Source: Flavobacteriales bacterium
Lineage (GTDB): Bacteria > Bacteroidota > Bacteroidia > Flavobacteriales_F > PHOS-HE28
Assembly: GCA_016717225.1 (NCBI GenBank)
Contig: JADKGB010000013.1
Location: forward strand, 34,144-98,143
Length of the DNA: 64,000 nt
Direction: 5' to 3'
The notes beneath the pieces were generated by a model, which was not told the DNA's origin, did not search any database, and was given only the letters and a program-made list of their open reading frames with translations. Positions 8,460-16,670 of this stretch are shown in pieces. Positions within the stretch are counted from its first letter, which is position 1; each line of letters begins with the position of its first letter. Position numbers and translations under genes: made by a program.

Positions 8460-8663
8460 GCGGTCATCATGTTATCGTCCAGTAGTTTTCCGATCACCCG
8501 ATGATGCGAATGCGCGAACGGGTTGTTCCTGTACAACGCCTCGGCCGGCACTCCTATTTCGTAATGATCTGCATCATCTACCTTAGCCAACCGCCTCCCG
8601 TTCCCGATCCAAGTGGATCAGGGTTTTCGGAAATCAACCCCCCCTTTCGCAGCACTTTTTATC

Positions 8664-10303
8664 ATGCGCAATTTCTCGCTGCTCTTTTTCGTCTTCGGAA
8701 TCTCGATAGGGCAGGCCCAGACGATCGGTCTGTTGGAATACTCACCTGGGAATCTGGACGGTTATGTGCTCTTTGCACCTATCCCCAGTACCACCACGTA
8801 CTTGATCGATAAGTGTGGGCGCGAAGTCCACGCCTGGCCCAGTGCCTACAAGCCAGGACAGTCGGTTTACATGTTGGACAACGGATCGTTGATACGTCCC
8901 GCGTCTATTCCGAATAACGTTTTCACTGCTGGTGGAAAAGCCGGTGCGGTCGAGCGGATCTCCTGGGATGGTGTGTTGGAATGGAGCTACCAGGTCAGTG
9001 ATACCGGGCAATGCAGTCATCACGACGTTTACCCGATGCCGAATGGGCACGTTCTCGTTCTGGCGTGGGAGAAGGTCAGCGTTGCCGAAGCGTTGGCGCA
9101 GGGTCGTGATCCGGCACTTCTAACCAATTCGTTGTGGCCAGAGAAGATCCTGGAACTTGAACCGATCGGCGAGAACCAAGCCAACATCGTTTGGGAATGG
9201 CATACATGGGACCACTTGGTGCAAGAATTTGATGATACCAAACCGAATTTCGCTCCCACCTCGGAACACCCGGAACTGGTTGATCTGAATTATGGTAACG
9301 GCATGGCGCAGGCGGATTGGATCCATGCGAACGCGCTCGACTACAATGCCGATCTGGACCAGATCATGATCAGTGCGCACAATTTCGACGAGCTCTGGGT
9401 GATCGATCATAGCACGACAACGGCCGAAGCCGCCTCGCATTCAGGTGGAACACAAGGTCACGGCGGGATCTGCTTTACCGTTGGGGAAATCCGGAAGCCT
9501 ACGGGCGTGGAACGGAAGCGGACAAGCGCCTTTTCGGCCAGCATAACACCCAGTGGATCAGGCCCGGGCTACCGCGCGCTGGTGAGGTTTTGGTCTTCAA
9601 CAACGGGGCTGGCAGGCCGGGTGGTCAGTATTCCTCGGTTGACATATTCGAAACACCGGTTGATGGGAATGGCGGTTATCCGATCGGTGTGGGTGTTCCT
9701 TTTGCTCCCGCAGCACTGGATTTCCAATGGACGGAACCGGTTCCGACGGATCTGTTCGCCCAGCGCATTTCCGGTGCACAGCAGTTGCCGAACGGAGGAT
9801 TACTTGTTTGTGATGGCCCTGCCGGATCTCTTTTCGAGTTGGGAACCAACAATGAGAAAGTGTGGCGGTACATCTCGCCCGTGAATTTGAACGGTCCTAT
9901 GACCCAAGGTGCGCCAGCCATTTTGAACACGGTATTCCGTTGCACGTGGATCGCCTCGAACCATCCGGGTCTGAATGGCCATGACCTCACTCCCGGTGAT
10001 CCCATCGAACTGGAACCATTGGCGAATGCGTGTACCACATCCAACCACCTCGAAGAAGCTGAGAACCCAGGCTTGATGGTCTTTCCTGATCCGACCTCTG
10101 GACCTGTTCAGCTTTCGCTGAACGGAGGTATCAGTTCTGTTTCCGTCACGGATGCACAGGGTAGGAGTATGGGTGTGCACCCATTGGTATCGGCAACAGG
10201 CAGAATGAGTGTGGATCTTTCCTCACTTGCGGATGGTATCTACTTGATACAAGCCGAACAAGACGGAAAGCGCTTTACCTCCCGCGTACTTGTTTCCCGT
10301 TAG
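8664..10303 (+). pseudogene. arylsulfotransferase (ASST) family protein with T9SS C-terminal domain, frameshifted at ~9465
   Basis: The N-terminal part resembles the ASST family. The second frame carries ...DLLYRWGNPEAYGRGTEADKRLFGQHNTQWIRPG..VLVFNNG and ends in the T9SS CTD GIYLIQAEQDGKRFTSRVLVSR. The frames rejoin if ggcggg is ggcgggg (a one-G deletion). Confidence 0.75.
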
Positions 10304-11109
10304 GCACCGGCATTCTTGCTCGCTCGTAAGGCATACACCATCGGTAGTTTGGCTTCCATGCCCTTGATCATGAACTGGCCATCGGCAGTGGCAACAGTAT
10401 TCTGAAAGCAGTCGTAGGGCGAACGGTCGTATTCGCGGAAGACATCCAGGCGAAGGCCTGCGATGATAAGTGCTTGCACCACATCTGCCAGGGAATGGTT
10501 CCATGCGAACGATGGCAGTTGTAATGGGGCGTTCCGAACGGCGTAGGTCCCGGACTCGTTCTCCTCGATCACTTCGCGATTGAAATAGGAGTATTGTACC
10601 CGTGAGAAGTCGTTGCTGTACATCCAGAGAGCCGGATGGAATTCAGCGAAGACCAATCGCCCACCAGGCTTCAAGTATGCTGCGATGTTCGCCGCCCAAG
10701 CGCTCAACTCGGGGAGCCAGCCAATGGTGCCGTATGTGGTAAAGACCACATCAAACCTTCCTTCGAGTTCTGTACGTCGGTCCAACACATTGCCCTCGAT
10801 GAATTCAGCACGAATGCCACAGCGATCGCTCAATTCTCGCGCTTTCGCAACAGCTTGGTCCGATAGGTCCAGTCCGGTGACGTGGGCGCCCAACCGTGCG
10901 AGTGAAAGTGTGTCCTGGCCGAAGTGGCATTGCAGATGCAACAGGTCTTGCCGGTTCACATCGCCCAAGAGATCCAACTCTATCCGGTTCAGCGTGCTTT
11001 TGCCATTCACGAAGGCCTCCACATCGTAGAACTGGGACGCATAGTGAAGCTCGGTGCGAGCATTCCACAGGGCTCGGTTCGCTTCGAAATGTGCGCGATG
11101 ATCATCCAT
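10300..11109 (-). CDS. class I SAM-dependent methyltransferase
   Basis: Assigned from general resemblance to class I SAM-dependent methyltransferases (no motif traced). Start MDDHRAHFE overlaps the upstream gene's stop (ATGA). Confidence 0.8.
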   Translation of the reverse strand: MDDHRAHFEANRALWNARTELHYASQFYDVEAFVNGKSTLNRIELDLLGDVNRQDLLHLQCHFGQDTLSLARLGAHVTGLDLSDQAVAKARELSDRCGIRAEFIEGNVLDRRTELEGRFDVVFTTYGTIGWLPELSAWAANIAAYLKPGGRLVFAEFHPALWMYSNDFSRVQYSYFNREVIEENESGTYAVRNAPLQLPSFAWNHSLADVVQALIIAGLRLDVFREYDRSPYDCFQNTVATADGQFMIKGMEAKLPMVYALRASKNAGA

Positions 11110-11786
11110 TACTTCGCAAGTGGGACCTGCTTTTCCTGTACGGGTTGAAAGGTCCCATCCTTCATGCCCCAGATCACCCAACGTTCGTGATCGCCTTCAG
11201 TGAATTTCTCCATGTTGCTCACCATCGTGAGCACGCCTTTCTCGTATTTGTAGGTGCTTCCACCGCGATGTCCTGGGCCTGCGTACCACTGAGAGCTCAC
11301 CATTTGCCGATCATGGTCGAACATGGGTTGCTGGATGCTATCGAGCATGCGCGACGATGTGAATTGGTTCGTTGCGGCATCCCACAACCAATAGCGGTGC
11401 TCGGCGTTCGTAAGGTCCGCCGCTGCTTCCATGATGCTGATGTCCTTGCTGCCGTTGAAGTCGTAGTCCAGCAGTTGCACCGCAGGGAATTGGCCATCAG
11501 GCATCGGGCAAGGGCAGGTCATGTTCTCGATCGCCAACCGTTGGAACGGTTCCTTGGCTCCTTTGGCACTTACCGAGATCGCATCAACGGAGCATTGCAC
11601 ACCCATGCTCATATGCATGTGTGTGCTCACGAGGAAGCGGATGTCCCGAAGGCTGTCGGTGAACAGGTAGCTTTCTTGTTTTGGTTTCTGTTCCGCAGCT
11701 GCAGCAGATGGGATATCCGCAGCCGCTTGTGGCACTGAGCTTCCTATGCACGCGAACAGGAGCAGAACCGGAAATAGACGGAGCAT
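11109..11786 (-). CDS. hypothetical exported protein
   Basis: Signal peptide MLRLFPVLLLFACIGSSVPQAAA. Translationally coupled to the downstream methyltransferase. No family recognised. Confidence 0.6.
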   Translation of the reverse strand: MLRLFPVLLLFACIGSSVPQAAADIPSAAAAEQKPKQESYLFTDSLRDIRFLVSTHMHMSMGVQCSVDAISVSAKGAKEPFQRLAIENMTCPCPMPDGQFPAVQLLDYDFNGSKDISIMEAAADLTNAEHRYWLWDAATNQFTSSRMLDSIQQPMFDHDRQMVSSQWYAGPGHRGGSTYKYEKGVLTMVSNMEKFTEGDHERWVIWGMKDGTFQPVQEKQVPLAK

Positions 11787-11862: not shown

Positions 11863-12511
11863 TCAGCGTACATCGTTGATCTCTACTCCGGGGAACTTGG
11901 CCTTGTCGAACGTGAACACACTCTCGTACAGGTCCACGTTGGGGCTGAATTTCTTGAGCATGTATGTCACTTCGTTGCCCTCTTTGTAAAGCACCTTCAC
12001 CAGCTTGGGTTCCATTTTCGCTTTGTCCACGGATAGGATCACGGTGTGATAGGGCTTCTTACCAGGTTCCAGAGGGAACAACTTGAGCACTTGCACAACA
12101 GTGCCGTCGGCTTCCTTTTTCTTCAACGAACGTGCTTTTGAATCCCTGCTCATAAATGCTGAAGATCTTTGTGGGGTCCAGTTCCTTGTCCATATCCGCT
12201 GGGTCGCTGATGGTTACCTCGTTGCTCTTCTTGCTGTAAGTCCAAATGGCCTTGCCGTCGTTCACAACGGTGTTGTCCGTAAGCGTGAGGCGGAAGAGTT
12301 TGCCTTTCACTTTCACGTTACCGTCCTGCTTCACGTTCAATTTGCCCGCGGTGTTGATCAGCGTGCTGCTGAAATCGGCTTCGAAACTGGTGTACGCGCG
12401 ACTCTTCGCGATCAACTTGTCGATGATGGCTTTGCTCTTGGGGTCGTCCTGTGCACGAACAGTGGCGGTTCCGAGTATCAATAGAGCGAGGATGAGAAGG
12501 GTCTTCTTCAT
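11863..12511 (-). pseudogene. lolA: LolA-like outer-membrane lipoprotein carrier protein, frameshifted at ~12118 (A/T homopolymer)
   Basis: MKKTLLILALLILGTATVRAQ ... KIFSIYEQGFKSTFVEE in one frame. KEADGTVVQVLKLFPLEPGKKPYHTVILSVDKAKMEPKLVKVLYKEGNEVTYMLKKFSPNVDLYESVFTFDKAKFPGVEINDVR in the other. The two frames meet at gaagaaaaagg. Confidence 0.7.
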
Positions 12512-12615: not shown

Positions 12616-13152
12616 TCAGGCCTTGGTCCGTTTCTTCGGAGCGGCCTTGGAAGTGGATCTCGCGGCCGCTTTCTTCACCGGCTTCGGCTTCTTCCACGTC
12701 AACATGGTGCCTTTGCATTTGGGGGAACCGCACTTGCATTCCCACGCTTTCAATTCCGCGGCTGTGGGTGGCTCGCTCAACACGATACCGTAGTCGTAGA
12801 TGATCTCTTCACCGGTCTTGATGTTCCGCTTGGCTTCGATGATCACTTTGTCTTTCGTGCGGTCTTTGCCTTTGGCTGTATGCACAAAAGCCACACCGTT
12901 CGGTTCGCATCCGGTGTTGATCCAGCGCGCATCGTTGCCATCCCGGTTGGCATCGATGACCCACTGCTTGTTCAGGATGAAAATGAACGTATGTCCGCTC
13001 TCGATATCGGAACTGTACCGCTCATCGGCCTCGGCATGCGTGATCAGCTTGCCTTTGTATTCCATGATATCCTCGCCTTTCTTGATATCCTCGAGGGCGA
13101 AGACGCCGTTACCGTGGATCTTCGATCGGCGCATTACTACTTTGTTCTTCAT
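12616..13152 (-). CDS. SET domain-containing protein (putative protein-lysine N-methyltransferase) with post-SET Cys cluster and Lys-rich C-terminal tail
   Basis: IHGNGVFALEDIKKGEDIMEYKG, then RWINTGCEPNG (the NHSCxPN-like motif), then GEEIIYDYG (the ELxxDY-like motif), then post-SET CKCGSPKCKG. Tail KKPKPVKKAAARSTSKAAPKKRTKA. ATG confirmed at 13152. Confidence 0.8.
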   Translation of the reverse strand: MKNKVVMRRSKIHGNGVFALEDIKKGEDIMEYKGKLITHAEADERYSSDIESGHTFIFILNKQWVIDANRDGNDARWINTGCEPNGVAFVHTAKGKDRTKDKVIIEAKRNIKTGEEIIYDYGIVLSEPPTAAELKAWECKCGSPKCKGTMLTWKKPKPVKKAAARSTSKAAPKKRTKA

Positions 13153-13261
13153 GGGCTGGTTTGGGGCCGCGAAGTTGCATGAATGGAACCATAGATGCAC
13201 GCGGATGCACACAAGTAATCCACGACCATGAACATTCTTTTGCGGCGAGGAAAAGCGGCGC

Positions 13262-14687
13262 TCAGAAATACGCCGTACACACGATCACCGCGGTGATCAC
13301 ACAGATCAGGTCCACCAGTAACATTACCCCTAGCGTGTAACGGCTGTTCTTCACGTTCACACTTCCGAAGTAGAGCGCGACCACATAGAACGTTGTTTCT
13401 GCCGCGCCTTGGAAGAGGCACGAGAGCTGCCCGGTGAGGCTGTCCGGGCCATAGGTCTTCATCGCATCCAACATGAAGCCGCGTGATCCTCCTGCGCTGA
13501 ACGGGCGCATAAGCGCGACCGGTATGGCATCGATCACTTGCTTGTCCACGCCTACCAGTCCCATCGTCCACGAAATGCCGTCCATTACAATGGTCATCAA
13601 TCCGCTGTTGCGGAAAATGCTGAGCGCCGCAAGCATCGCGATCATGTAAGGCAGCACCCGAAGGCCCGTGGTGAAGCCATCCTTCGCGCCGTGGATGAAC
13701 GAGTCGAACATGTTGGTGCCTTTCTCCGTGAAGTATTTCTCGAAGAGGAACGCATAGCCCACGATCATTGCGATGATCGCCAGCAGCATGCCATTGCTCA
13801 GGTTATCGGTGAAGTGGAATTTCTGAACACCTGTGAGCTGCGTGATGTAGGTCATCAACCCGCCAATGATGCCGCTGATCAACAACACGAACAACATCAC
13901 CGGTAGGTTGAACAGGTTGATCCGCTGGCGAAAGCCCACGATGAACAGCGCCGCTAACGTGCCTACGAACGACGTGACGCATCGGGATCATGATGTCCGC
14001 TGGATTCGCAGCGCCCTGTGCAGCACGATAGCCGATGATGCTCGTGGGCAGCAGCGTGAGCCCGGCTGCATGCAAGCACAGGAACATGATCTGGCTGTTC
14101 GATGCTTTGTCTTTCGTGGCGTTGCTCTCTTGCATGCTCTCCATCGCCTTCAAGCCGAACGGAGTGGCTGCGCTGTCCAGACCAAGGAAGTTCGCCGCGA
14201 AATTCAACGTCATGAAACCGTAGGCCGGGTGCTCATGAGGCAGATCAGGAAAGATCCGGCGGAAGACAGGGGAGAGGAAGCGCGCGAGTTTTTCCATGGC
14301 GCGTGAGTCTACCAAGAGGTTCAACAGGCCGCAGAAGAACGTGAGGTAGCCGATCAACGGTAGCCACAGATCGGTGATCGTGCCGCGACAGGTCTGGAAC
14401 AGCCCGTCGGCCGGTTGTTTGCCGATGTTCGCACTTAGTACGCCGCCCTTGCTCAACTTGAAAAGCGTATCGCCGCGTTGAACACCATTCTCCCCAGCAT
14501 TGCGCAATTCGATGAGGAAGGCTGTGCTGGCGATCGTCATCGTATCGCGCTCCGCCACCACCAGGGCGTCGCCCTGCTTGCCGTTCACCATGCTGCCCAA
14601 GGTGTACTGCCGTCCAGTGAACAACATCACCAGGATGTAGCCGATGCTGAGAAGAAGTATGAAGGTCCAGAAACGGCTGAGGGCCAT
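13262..14687 (-). pseudogene. nucleoside-recognition (Gate) domain membrane protein, SpmA/SpmB-like fusion, apparent frameshift at ~13985
   Basis: The SpmA-like N-terminal half (MALSRFWTFILLLSIGYILVMLF...) and SpmB-like C-terminal half (..FIVGFRQRINLFNLPVMLFVLLISGIIGG...) are in different frames. The junction is near ..NPADIMIP. Confidence 0.65.
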
Positions 14688-14733
14688 GTGTTGTTCGGTG
14701 GTTGGACAAAGCAGCAATGGAATGCGATCCATT

Positions 14734-14841: not shown

Positions 14842-16670
14842 ATGCCCCTAATGAAGAATGCGCTCTCCTGTTTCCTGATGATCGCATTGTTTGGTTCCTG
14901 TTCCGATCCCGGGCCGGCGGTGGTGGCGAAAGACCCCATCCACGAAGTGGAAACCGGCCTTTGTTATCCCAACTACCTGGTAGGCGACTCCACTTGGACC
15001 ATTGAGGAGCGCATGGCGCATTACGGTGTGCCCGGCATGAGTATCGCGGTGATCAAGGACAACAAGATCGCATGGATCAAGAGTTACGGTGTTGTGGACA
15101 AGGAGACCAAAGAGCCCGTTACGGACGCCACGCTCTTTCAGGCGGATCCATCAGCAAGCCGGTTTCCACATATGGCGCGTTGAAGCTGGCAGAGCTGGGC
15201 CTGATCGCATTGGATGCTGATGTGAACACGCAATTGCATTCGTGGAAACTGCCGGAGAATGAGTTCACGCAGAAGCAGAAAGTAACCCCGAAGTTGTTGC
15301 TTGGCCATATGGCAGGCACCACTGTGCACGGCTTTCTCGGCTACAGCCCCGACCTGCCCGTGCCCTCGCTTGTGCAGGTTCTGAGCGGTGAAGCTCCTGC
15401 AAATTCGCCACCCATCGTTGTGGACAAGCTGCCAGGCGAGAGTTTCCGCTATTCCGGCGGCGGTTACTGCATCATCCAGCAATTGATGATCGATGCCAAG
15501 GGCGCGACTTTTCCCAGCATCATGGATGAATTGGTGCTGCGCCCGTTGGGAATGACCAAGAGCACATACGATCAACCCCTCACCGGTGAACACCTGAAAA
15601 TGGCCGCCACAGGCTACGTGCCCGATGGATCCATGACCAAAGGGAAGCGACATACGTATCCCGAAATGGCTGCGGCAGGATTGTGGACTACGGCCGAGGA
15701 CCTCGCGCGCTATGTGATCGACGTTCAGCGTTCGTACAGCAGCGACAGTGGCGCTGTGATCTCCAAGGCTTCGGCCGCGATGATGCTGTCGCCGTACATG
15801 GAACCCTTTGCAGGCGTGGGCATGTTCCTGCGGATGAACCAAGGTGAAACTTCTTTCGGACACGGAGGTTGGGATGAAGGTTTCTCGAGCGAATGCGTCG
15901 CATACCGCGACAAGGGCTACGGTGTGGTGGTCCTTACCAATGCCAACCAGCCGGACTTCATCAGTGAGGTGATCCGTTCCGTAGCGCGGGCTTATGCCTG
16001 GAAGGGATATGTACCCACGTACACGAAACTGGAAATGGATCCCGCAGCGCTTGGAAGGGTAAGTGGGCGCTACCGCCTTTCAGGAAACTCCTTGACGACC
16101 ATTTCACATTCAGGTGGCCGCTTGTTCCAGCAGGCCATGGGCGAGGAGCCGGTTGAAATGTTCCGGATATCGGATTCCACCTACATCAGTCGGGACGGCG
16201 ACTTCCCTATCCAGTTCAAGGGATCACCAGCAGATAGCACGATGATCATGGTGAGTTGGGATACCGAAAAATGGACTGCCGCGTCAAGCTACCCAAGGTT
16301 GCAGGAAAATGACCGCCTGCCGATCGAGATGGTCCTCTCCGGTGATGTGGAAGGGGCCCTCATCGCTTACCGAACACGCTTGGTTGCGGATCCCAAGGAT
16401 CAGTCCATTTCCGAACAAGCGATCAACGATCTGGGCTACCAATTCCTCGGCAATGCAAAGATCGTGATGGCCAGGGATCTGTTCAACTTGAACAGGCAGC
16501 TATATCCCCAAAGTGCCAATACGAACGACAGTTACGCCGAAGCCTGCCTGAAGAACGGAGAAAAGGATCTGGCGCTGACCTATTACAAAAAAGCCGTTGC
16601 CATGGACCCCACCAACAGCAACGCGGCGAGGGTGATCAAGGAACTGGAGGGGAAGGAGGCTAATAAGTAG
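14842..16670 (+). pseudogene. serine hydrolase of the beta-lactamase (class C/PBP-like) family with C-terminal TPR-like region, frameshifted at ~15145
   Basis: MPLMKNALSCFLMIALFGSCS lipoprotein signal. ...YGVPGMSIAVIKDNKIAWIKSYGVVDKETKEPVTDATLFQA, then in the other frame GSISKPVSTYGALKL (the S-x-x-K active-site motif). The frames rejoin if gcgga is gcggga (a one-G deletion). Confidence 0.75.

Follow-up and report, generated by a model that had tools for sequence, protein, structure and literature searches.

A small SET-domain protein with a basic C-terminal tail, a predicted lysine methyltransferase, encoded in a Flavobacteriales genome

Introduction

SET-domain genes were recognized in bacteria more than 20 years ago, and nearly all of the functional work on them concerns effectors that are injected into host nuclei. 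The gene described here lies on the minus strand (12616..13152) of a 64,000-nucleotide stretch of a Flavobacteriales genome (assembly GCA_016717225.1, contig JADKGB010000013.1, positions 34,144 to 98,143; hereafter the window) and encodes a 178-residue protein with a SET domain, a post-SET cysteine motif, and a lysine-rich tail. It raises the question of what such a protein would methylate in a bacterium, and what its tail is for. Our preferred reading, to which we give a probability of about 0.55, is that it acts as a cytoplasmic, S-adenosylmethionine (AdoMet)-dependent lysine methyltransferase and is anchored to nucleic acid (most likely that of the nucleoid) by its basic tail; this draws on sequence comparison, a structural model, and analogy with characterized enzymes. 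The locus is not a new kind of system, but a clean, minimal example of a very widespread family. Two natural variants in that family, the presence or absence of the basic tail and the occurrence of His or Thr in the NHSC motif, should be useful for experiments, and since some of the genera that carry the family are cultured and genetically tractable, the question of an endogenous substrate is directly testable there.

Identity and integrity of the SET-domain gene

The complete coding sequence consists of 178 codons plus a stop codon, and its translation is identical to that quoted in a preliminary description of this DNA. All of the hallmark segments on which the description had based its assignment are present: GNGVFA (residues 14–19), RWINTGCEPNG (76–86), and GEEIIYDYG (114–122), followed by the post-SET segment CKCGSPKCKG (139–148) and the tail TWKKPKPVKKAAARSTSKAAPKKRTKA (152–178). 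The Pfam SET profile (PF00856) matches over its full length (positions 1–105 of 105; E=1e-23, 84.2 bits compared to a cut-off of 22.4), and a phmmer search against all Protein Data Bank (PDB) chains gives 116 matches, the best being the SET1 proteins of yeast and K. lactis and human MLL1–4 (E values of 5e-20 to 1e-16). These alignments span residues 2 to 147–149 and thus include the post-SET CxCxxxxC. At the sequence level the resemblance to SET domains is far above that expected by chance.

The start codon is the ATG at 13152, and this Met is also the start of the homologues in an alignment of 45 sequences (54–88% identity), in which residue conservation was also scored. Four neighboring genes are split by frameshifts (see below), and the tail could in principle have been a similar artifact. 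This is rejected: an independent Logan contig (L001, from SRR11673999) encodes an identical 178-residue protein, so that neither the open reading frame (ORF) nor the tail is a frameshift product, and tails of the same basic kind are present in the 17 closest homologues. Sequence and structural model together thus indicate an intact gene for a small putative SET-domain protein-lysine methyltransferase, composed of a SET domain, a post-SET segment, and a basic tail that is predicted to be disordered.

Relationship to SET1 and MLL enzymes

The core of the SET domain comprises residues 14–122 (12787..13113, minus strand). An AlphaFold2 model built from the 45-sequence alignment has a mean pLDDT (per-residue confidence) of 85.2 and a pTM (global confidence) of 0.74, with values mostly above 90 in the core and of 73–78 in the short SET-I insert (residues 41–60). 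Searching the PDB with this model using Foldseek gives 364 matches at E≤0.001, and the 50 that were listed are all SET-domain enzymes. MLL1, MLL3, MLL2, MLL4, and yeast SET1 come first (E of about 1e-13, target-normalized TM-scores of 0.74–0.82, 33–36% identity), and NSD, ASH1L, SETD2, and EZH2 follow; the first 24 Foldseek matches, like the first 19 PDB sequence matches, are all SET1 or MLL1–4. The comparison with known SET methyltransferases that the preliminary description had proposed as a check therefore comes out in its favor, and the modeled protein has a SET fold.

The likeness to the SET1/MLL (KMT2) enzymes, which are the best match in both sequence and structure, extends to their layout. 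In each, the SET domain is directly followed by CxCxxxxC, there is no Cys-rich pre-SET or AWS region (the N-terminus of the window protein is the first β-strand of the SET domain), and the GE(x)5Y motif has a Tyr at the switch position. There are also several departures. First, the window protein is only 178 residues long, and is without N-SET, WIN, or the other regions that bind WDR5, RbBP5, and ASH2L. Secondly, it has a Thr in place of the NHSC His, and a basic, apparently disordered tail where the SET1/MLL proteins end with …KGFLN. Thirdly, its family is found in bacteria, which are without nucleosomes. Because the N-SET and WIN regions and the partner-binding parts are missing, the protein is best described, from sequence and model, as resembling the KMT2 catalytic module rather than as a member of the KMT2 family.

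Other known SET proteins are more distant. The Legionella effector LegAS4/RomA (NCBIfam NF043024, T4SS_AnkI) shares the SET core, with a score of 51.6 bits over residues 10–121; orthology is rejected, as the cut-off is 550 bits and there are neither ankyrin repeats nor a Dot/Icm signal. Methanosarcina Go1-SET and the vSET protein of Paramecium bursaria chlorella virus are, like the window protein, stand-alone minimal SET enzymes. To our knowledge both are without a Cys-rich post-SET motif, and no basic tail is mentioned for either in the literature examined, in contrast to the window protein.

Catalytic residues

All but one of the residues of the AdoMet pocket and lysine channel are retained, including GxG, Y32, N79, and the GE(x)5Y motif with Y119 and Y121. 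Residues H13, G14, G16, Y32, N79, C82, P84, N85, E115, E116, Y119, Y121, W137, C139, C141, C146, and G148 are invariant in the 45 homologues. The GxG AdoMet motif is H13-G14-N15-G16 (13105..13116; this and the following motifs are on the minus strand), and aligns with IHNWG and IQGLG of SET1 and MLL4. Of the two further motifs, as defined previously (R/H-φ-φ-NHSC and GE(x)5Y; PMC1636376), the first corresponds to R76-W-I-N-T-G-C-E-P-N85 (12898..12927), an R-φ-φ-NHSC-x-PN motif with Thr for His, and the second to G114-E-E-I-I-Y119-D-Y121 (12790..12813), which aligns with GEELTYDY of SET1 and MLL4. Y121 aligns with the catalytic Tyr of the SET1/MLL enzymes, and Y119 with the Phe/Tyr-switch position. 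We take the latter to be the position of MLL1 Y3942 and DIM-5 F281, and since it is occupied by Tyr, an enzyme limited to mono- or di-methylation is predicted. The post-SET segment W137-x-C139-x-C141-GSPK-C146-KGTML151 (12700..12744) aligns with CLCGAPSCKGF of yeast SET1, and its cysteines are invariant, in agreement with the post-SET motif proposed in the preliminary description; C139, C141, and C146, together with C82, are presumably the four ligands of a canonical post-SET zinc site, which we predict to be present here.

The exception lies in the NHSC motif, in which the R, N, C, P, and N are kept while His is replaced by Thr (T80) and Ser by Gly. The protein had been called a canonical SET protein; this is appropriate for the fold, the motifs, and the catalytic Tyr and Asn context, which is present and family-invariant, but not for the NHSC His, and the protein is not a degenerate fragment. 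Among the 120 best homologues the residue following the motif Asn is Thr in 58 (TG in 43, TS in 14, TA in one) and His in 52 (HS in 50, HG in two), with a few having C, Q, or F. Almost all of the Xanthomonadales members have NHS, and Thr is a trait of the whole clade to which the window protein belongs.

The activity of the protein is not to be taken for granted, because a change at this very position, H324K, is the standard catalytically dead mutant of SUV39H1 (PMC4960310). The protein could then be an impaired pseudo-enzyme that has lost the NHSC His and serves as a binder or scaffold. However, the other residues of the AdoMet pocket and lysine channel are invariant in Thr-type and His-type members alike, and the tolerance of C, Q, and F at the T80 position in relatives suggests that the contact is made by the backbone in this family. 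We regard a pseudo-enzyme as very unlikely. Because Thr is fixed clade-wide while the other catalytic residues stay invariant, we infer that the substitution is tolerated and that the enzyme is active.

Distribution and inheritance of the family

The preliminary description had considered SET proteins to be uncommon in bacteria, which is unfair given their numbers. A scan of GTDB species (motif search plus tblastn, one genome per species) reveals at least 597 confirmed relatives of the window protein, mainly in the Xanthomonadales and Flavobacteriales, and SET genes had been found in 83 of 390 bacterial genomes by 2007 and in more than 500 genomes by 2014 (PMC3980110), with Xylella, also of the Xanthomonadales, among the carriers listed (PMC10117894). 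A large protein database contains 377 matches at E≤1e-3, some of which are named by NCBI as "SET domain-containing protein-lysine N-methyltransferase" (in Dyella and in Flavobacteriales metagenome-assembled genomes, MAGs). When 1.84 billion representatives at 50% identity are searched exhaustively with phmmer, the number of matching clusters rises from 25 at E≤1e-30 to 2,488 at E≤1e-10 and 9,970 at E≤1e-3. The best matches in this representative library include two proteins with several SET domains in tandem, which is an unusual architecture (P0132 and P0123); one has 4,152 residues and five SET-like stretches, the other 352 residues and two.

Of the best 80 among the 597 or more relatives, 11 belong to MAGs of the Flavobacteriales or of other Bacteroidota, and one to an Eremiobacterota MAG. 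The remaining 68 come from the Xanthomonadales, broadly defined, or from unclassified proteobacterial MAGs, and include those of Xanthomonas, Stenotrophomonas maltophilia, Pseudoxanthomonas, Lysobacter, Rhodanobacter, Dyella, Frateuria, and Luteibacter, among others. The closest loci within this set are those of Flavobacteriales MAGs, which, together with a type IX secretion Por_Secre_tail domain encoded at 9590–10303, speaks for a Bacteroidota origin of the window. Compared to the annotated Xanthomonadales and Flavobacteriales proteins, with which it shares every motif, the window protein differs only in having NTG rather than NHS and a 27-residue tail rather than a …GTLLKPKR end. It thus appears to be an ordinary member of a widespread and already annotated bacterial SET family that is biochemically unstudied.

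In a neighbor-joining tree rooted on SET1, the Bacteroidota proteins form a basal grade or clade and those of the Gammaproteobacteria a single clade. The gene from the Candidatus Eremiobacteraeota MAG (L012; CAJCJD010000152.1, 6001–6462) falls inside the Dyella/Lysobacterales clade, next to L036, and this placement could reflect either recent gene transfer or an error in binning the contig. For the window gene, recent horizontal acquisition and contamination are both rejected, as its GC content is normal, synteny is kept, and the tree follows the phyla with that one exception. Sequence comparison thus points to vertical inheritance of the family, including in genera that live free in soil and water (Dyella, Rhodanobacter, and Lysobacter, for example).

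The basic C-terminal tail

The tail occupies residues 152–178 (12619..12699, minus strand). Its 27 residues include 9 K, 2 R, 6 A, 3 P, and 5 S/T, with no D or E, and the calculated pI is about 12. The mean pLDDT is 77 for the block of residues 151–160 and then falls to 49 and 48 in the blocks from 161, with values below 50 at 167–170 and 174–178; the tail is thus predicted to be disordered. These features agree with the Lys-rich, histone-tail-like C-terminus of the preliminary description, although the likeness to the tails of H1-like and nucleoid proteins is compositional only, with no homology claimed. No other Lys-rich, acid-poor stretch of this kind occurs among the ORFs of the window, and a candidate H1-like substrate gene within it is therefore rejected.

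The baseline form of the family ends much sooner, at nine residues past the last Cys (xGT[LM]L[KQ]PK[RK], e.g. …GTLLKPKR), which is the median length among the 69 loci from outside the Bacteroidota; within the Bacteroidota the median is 23, and the window protein has 32. In its 17 closest homologues (71–93% core identity) the tails are 15–38 residues long and 37–53% basic, with at most one acidic residue. They match the window tail at only 5–16 of the 27 positions, and x-W-[KR]-[KT]-P-[KR] is the sole motif in common. Lys and Arg are interchanged, with one K and 6 R in the tail of P0013 and 7 K and 9 R in that of P0017. Basic extensions also occur sporadically in members from Nevskia, Dokdonella, and Rudaea, and the alignments suggest that long basic tails are clade-specific additions that arose separately in these genera. 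What appears to be conserved is charge and not the identity of the lysines; that this charge is kept without sequence or Lys identity, and has been gained repeatedly and independently, is the behavior expected of an electrostatic, polyanion-binding appendage.

Other C-termini are found elsewhere in the family. Some Flavobacteriales relatives (P0026, P0030, P0031, P0035, P0037, P0058, and P0071) have poly-Lys/Asp/Glu tails of 45–95 residues, e.g. with KKKKKKDKEKEKD repeats, or other C-termini, another Flavobacteriales subgroup has a conserved GKKVREVIKxHPNWxK motif at its C-terminus, and some more distant relatives have short acidic tails. The C-terminus of the family thus has the appearance of a hotspot for lineage-specific appendages.

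The closest described parallel to the tail is that of NUE of Chlamydia (cpnSET; the CT737 family), which by its described features is likewise a small, single-domain bacterial SET protein with a basic C-terminal extension. NUE has a C-terminal KHRKKR motif that aids its targeting to chromatin, and is automethylated at K209/K210; without its last 12 residues it is less enriched in nuclei and methylates histones less, and removal of the KK pair also lowers histone methylation (PMC2904774). There is thus already a precedent for a bacterial SET protein whose basic C-terminal tail is automethylated, and the tail described here might likewise be mainly an automethylation or pseudo-substrate element, in which the lysines beyond the post-SET cap enter the protein's own active site and tune its activity. 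A basic motif (GTMLK-W/P-K-K/R) is always found directly after the cap, beside the location of the substrate groove in MLL/SET1, and residues 151–160, with their moderate pLDDT, are not fully disordered. However, no tail lysine is invariant, the tails drift toward Arg (as in P0013) and are acidic in two relatives, and AlphaFold2 leaves the tail undocked from the active site, with the distal part at a pLDDT below 50. The comparative data thus favor a charge-based role for the tail over a Lys-specific methyl-acceptor site, and we consider it unlikely that automethylation is its main purpose, although automethylation and tethering are compatible with each other.

Where the enzyme may act

We propose that the minimal SET domain with its predicted zinc-binding post-SET cap would methylate protein lysines inside the bacterium using AdoMet, as a mono- or di-methylase, and that the 27-residue Lys/Arg/Ala/Pro tail would hold it to a polyanion, most likely nucleoid DNA, by non-specific electrostatic attraction. 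Tethering would concentrate the enzyme beside DNA-bound substrates, e.g. HU or H1-like nucleoid proteins. Nucleoid DNA and the basic proteins bound to it are regarded as the likeliest target by analogy with two characterized enzymes: cpnSET methylates the bacterial H1-like protein Hc1, and Go1-SET the DNA-associated protein MC1-α (PMC10117894). The second of these is a prokaryotic precedent for an endogenous chromatin-protein substrate.

An intracellular location is consistent with the absence of export signals. There is no signal peptide, the N-terminus being the first β-strand of the SET domain, and no C-terminal domain of the type IX secretion system (T9SS), as Pfam finds only the SET domain, although cryptic signals of the type III or type VI secretion kind could be missed from sequence. 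These observations also bear on the idea that the protein is a secreted nucleomodulin, directed at eukaryotic cells such as protists or algae, with the tail acting as a nuclear localization signal (NLS) and host histones being methylated. Apart from the action of cpnSET on Hc1, the well-characterized bacterial SET proteins are all host-directed effectors (NUE, BtSET, BaSET, and RomA/LegAS4; PMC10117894), the catalytic domain is nearest to eukaryotic H3K4 methyltransferases, and the tail on direct reading contains KKPK, KRTK, and a KK-x11-KKRTK that fits the classical bipartite NLS consensus. Such patterns match any Lys-rich stretch, however. NUE is an effector secreted through the type III system by an obligate intracellular pathogen, whereas the window protein is without a secretion signal and comes from an environmental Flavobacteriales genome. 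Moreover, the gene has a conserved housekeeping context and is not in an island, and the family is vertically inherited in free-living genera, with most members tailless. We therefore think a nucleomodulin highly improbable.

The tethered-methyltransferase reading can be extended to the whole family, which would then be an endogenous "chromatin writer" and the nearest equivalent in prokaryotes to the SET1/MLL catalytic module. In the Flavobacteriales an H1-like tail would keep it on the nucleoid, and it would methylate HU or H1-like proteins and so regulate DNA compaction or transcription. This is a tentative proposal that is rather less likely to be right than wrong by a good distance, but if true, lysine methylation of chromatin proteins would be native to hundreds of free-living bacterial species and not just a pathogen weapon.

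Several observations count against our preferred reading. First, as noted above, T80 stands in place of the His whose change inactivates SUV39H1. Secondly, the tails of two fairly close relatives (P0018 and P0019) are acidic and nearly no tail is present in most Xanthomonadales members, so that the core function does not require the tail, whatever its role. Thirdly, no conserved neighbor indicates a substrate: no HU or H1-like gene is present within the 64-kb window, and the flanks in the Xanthomonadales, examined by clustering the flanking ORFs and then searching Pfam, are variable (SufB/Rrf2, acyl-CoA dehydrogenase, an EF-G paralogue, and GreA-like proteins) and mostly on the opposite strand. 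Fourthly, full-text literature searches found no paper characterizing this SET family, only general reviews and papers on the known effectors. Lastly, DNA is not the only plausible ligand, since a disordered basic tail would bind to RNA or to ribosomes just as well.

The last point also leads to an alternative in which the enzyme serves the translation or RNA machinery, the tail binding rRNA or other RNA and the substrates being ribosomal proteins or translation factors. Basic disordered tails do bind RNA as well as DNA, the EF-G paralogue is located just downstream in 17 Xanthomonadales loci with a GreA/GreB-like factor nearby in seven, and bacteria commonly methylate lysines of their ribosomal proteins and EF-Tu. 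The enzymes known to carry this out (PrmA, EftM) are of class I and not SET proteins, and no bacterial SET enzyme acting on ribosomal proteins is described in the literature examined. The EF-G and GreA-like neighbors are moreover on the opposite strand, in a minority of loci, and absent from the Flavobacteriales. A role in translation thus seems to us to be unlikely, and tethering to the nucleoid remains our preferred reading.

Genome neighborhood

The gene stands alone, as the preliminary description had stated, between a lolA-like gene and a nucleoside-recognition membrane protein gene of a Bacteroidota chromosome. Both flanking genes are on the same (minus) strand: upstream, across a gap of 109 bp, is an SpmA/SpmB-like membrane protein with two Gate domains, and downstream, across 104 bp, is a LolA_2 lipoprotein carrier gene. 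The order spmAB–SET–lolA is found in 10 Flavobacteriales loci (from tblastn of the window neighbors against the 80 related loci), and is confined to the Flavobacteriales. A functional partner in the neighborhood is rejected, since in the 80 related loci no neighbor is conserved across phyla and the neighbors are unrelated to protein methylation; no SWIB, HU, or H1-like partner gene was found in these neighborhoods either. A role in a defense system is likewise rejected, with PADLOC giving no match for the SET protein or for an adjacent 225-residue hypothetical protein. Because the GC content of the gene matches its surroundings, synteny is kept within the Flavobacteriales, the neighbors are unrelated, and PADLOC is negative, we regard the SET gene as a resident, stand-alone gene whose context gives no clue to its substrate.

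A terminator-like GC-rich hairpin with a T-rich run (13256–13275, minus strand) overlaps the stop codon of the upstream spmB-like ORF, while the terminator scan finds none between the SET gene and lolA. Together these give a weak hint that the SET gene has its own transcription start, with possible read-through into lolA. A promoter scan found no σ70-like promoter, as expected for Bacteroidota.

Other features of the window

Within about 7 kbp around the SET gene there are four genes that are each split by a frameshift into two overlapping ORFs. These encode an arylsulfotransferase with a Por_Secre_tail domain of the T9SS (8613–10303, with Por_Secre_tail at 9590–10303), the LolA_2 protein (11863–12511, minus strand; the junction is at an A5 run near 12117–12121), the fused SpmA/SpmB Gate–Gate protein (13262–14693, minus strand; the two halves are in a single frame in the relative L002), and a beta-lactamase-family protein (14842–16670). 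Such a pattern is more suggestive of homopolymer indels introduced by long-read assembly than of pseudogenes. In a close relative (L028, a MAG contig with a "tig..." name) there are indels even within the SET gene.

The 225-residue hypothetical protein is encoded by an ORF at 11109–11786 (minus strand) and has a signal-peptide-like N-terminus; it has no Pfam match, and among the 80 related loci is present only in the closest, L028. Beyond it, at 10300–11181 (minus strand), is a gene for a class I AdoMet-dependent methyltransferase (Methyltransf_12/25/11), which lies within about 3 kbp of the SET gene in six of the 11 Bacteroidota loci. Its position and side vary among these loci, and its closeness to the SET gene is probably plain synteny.

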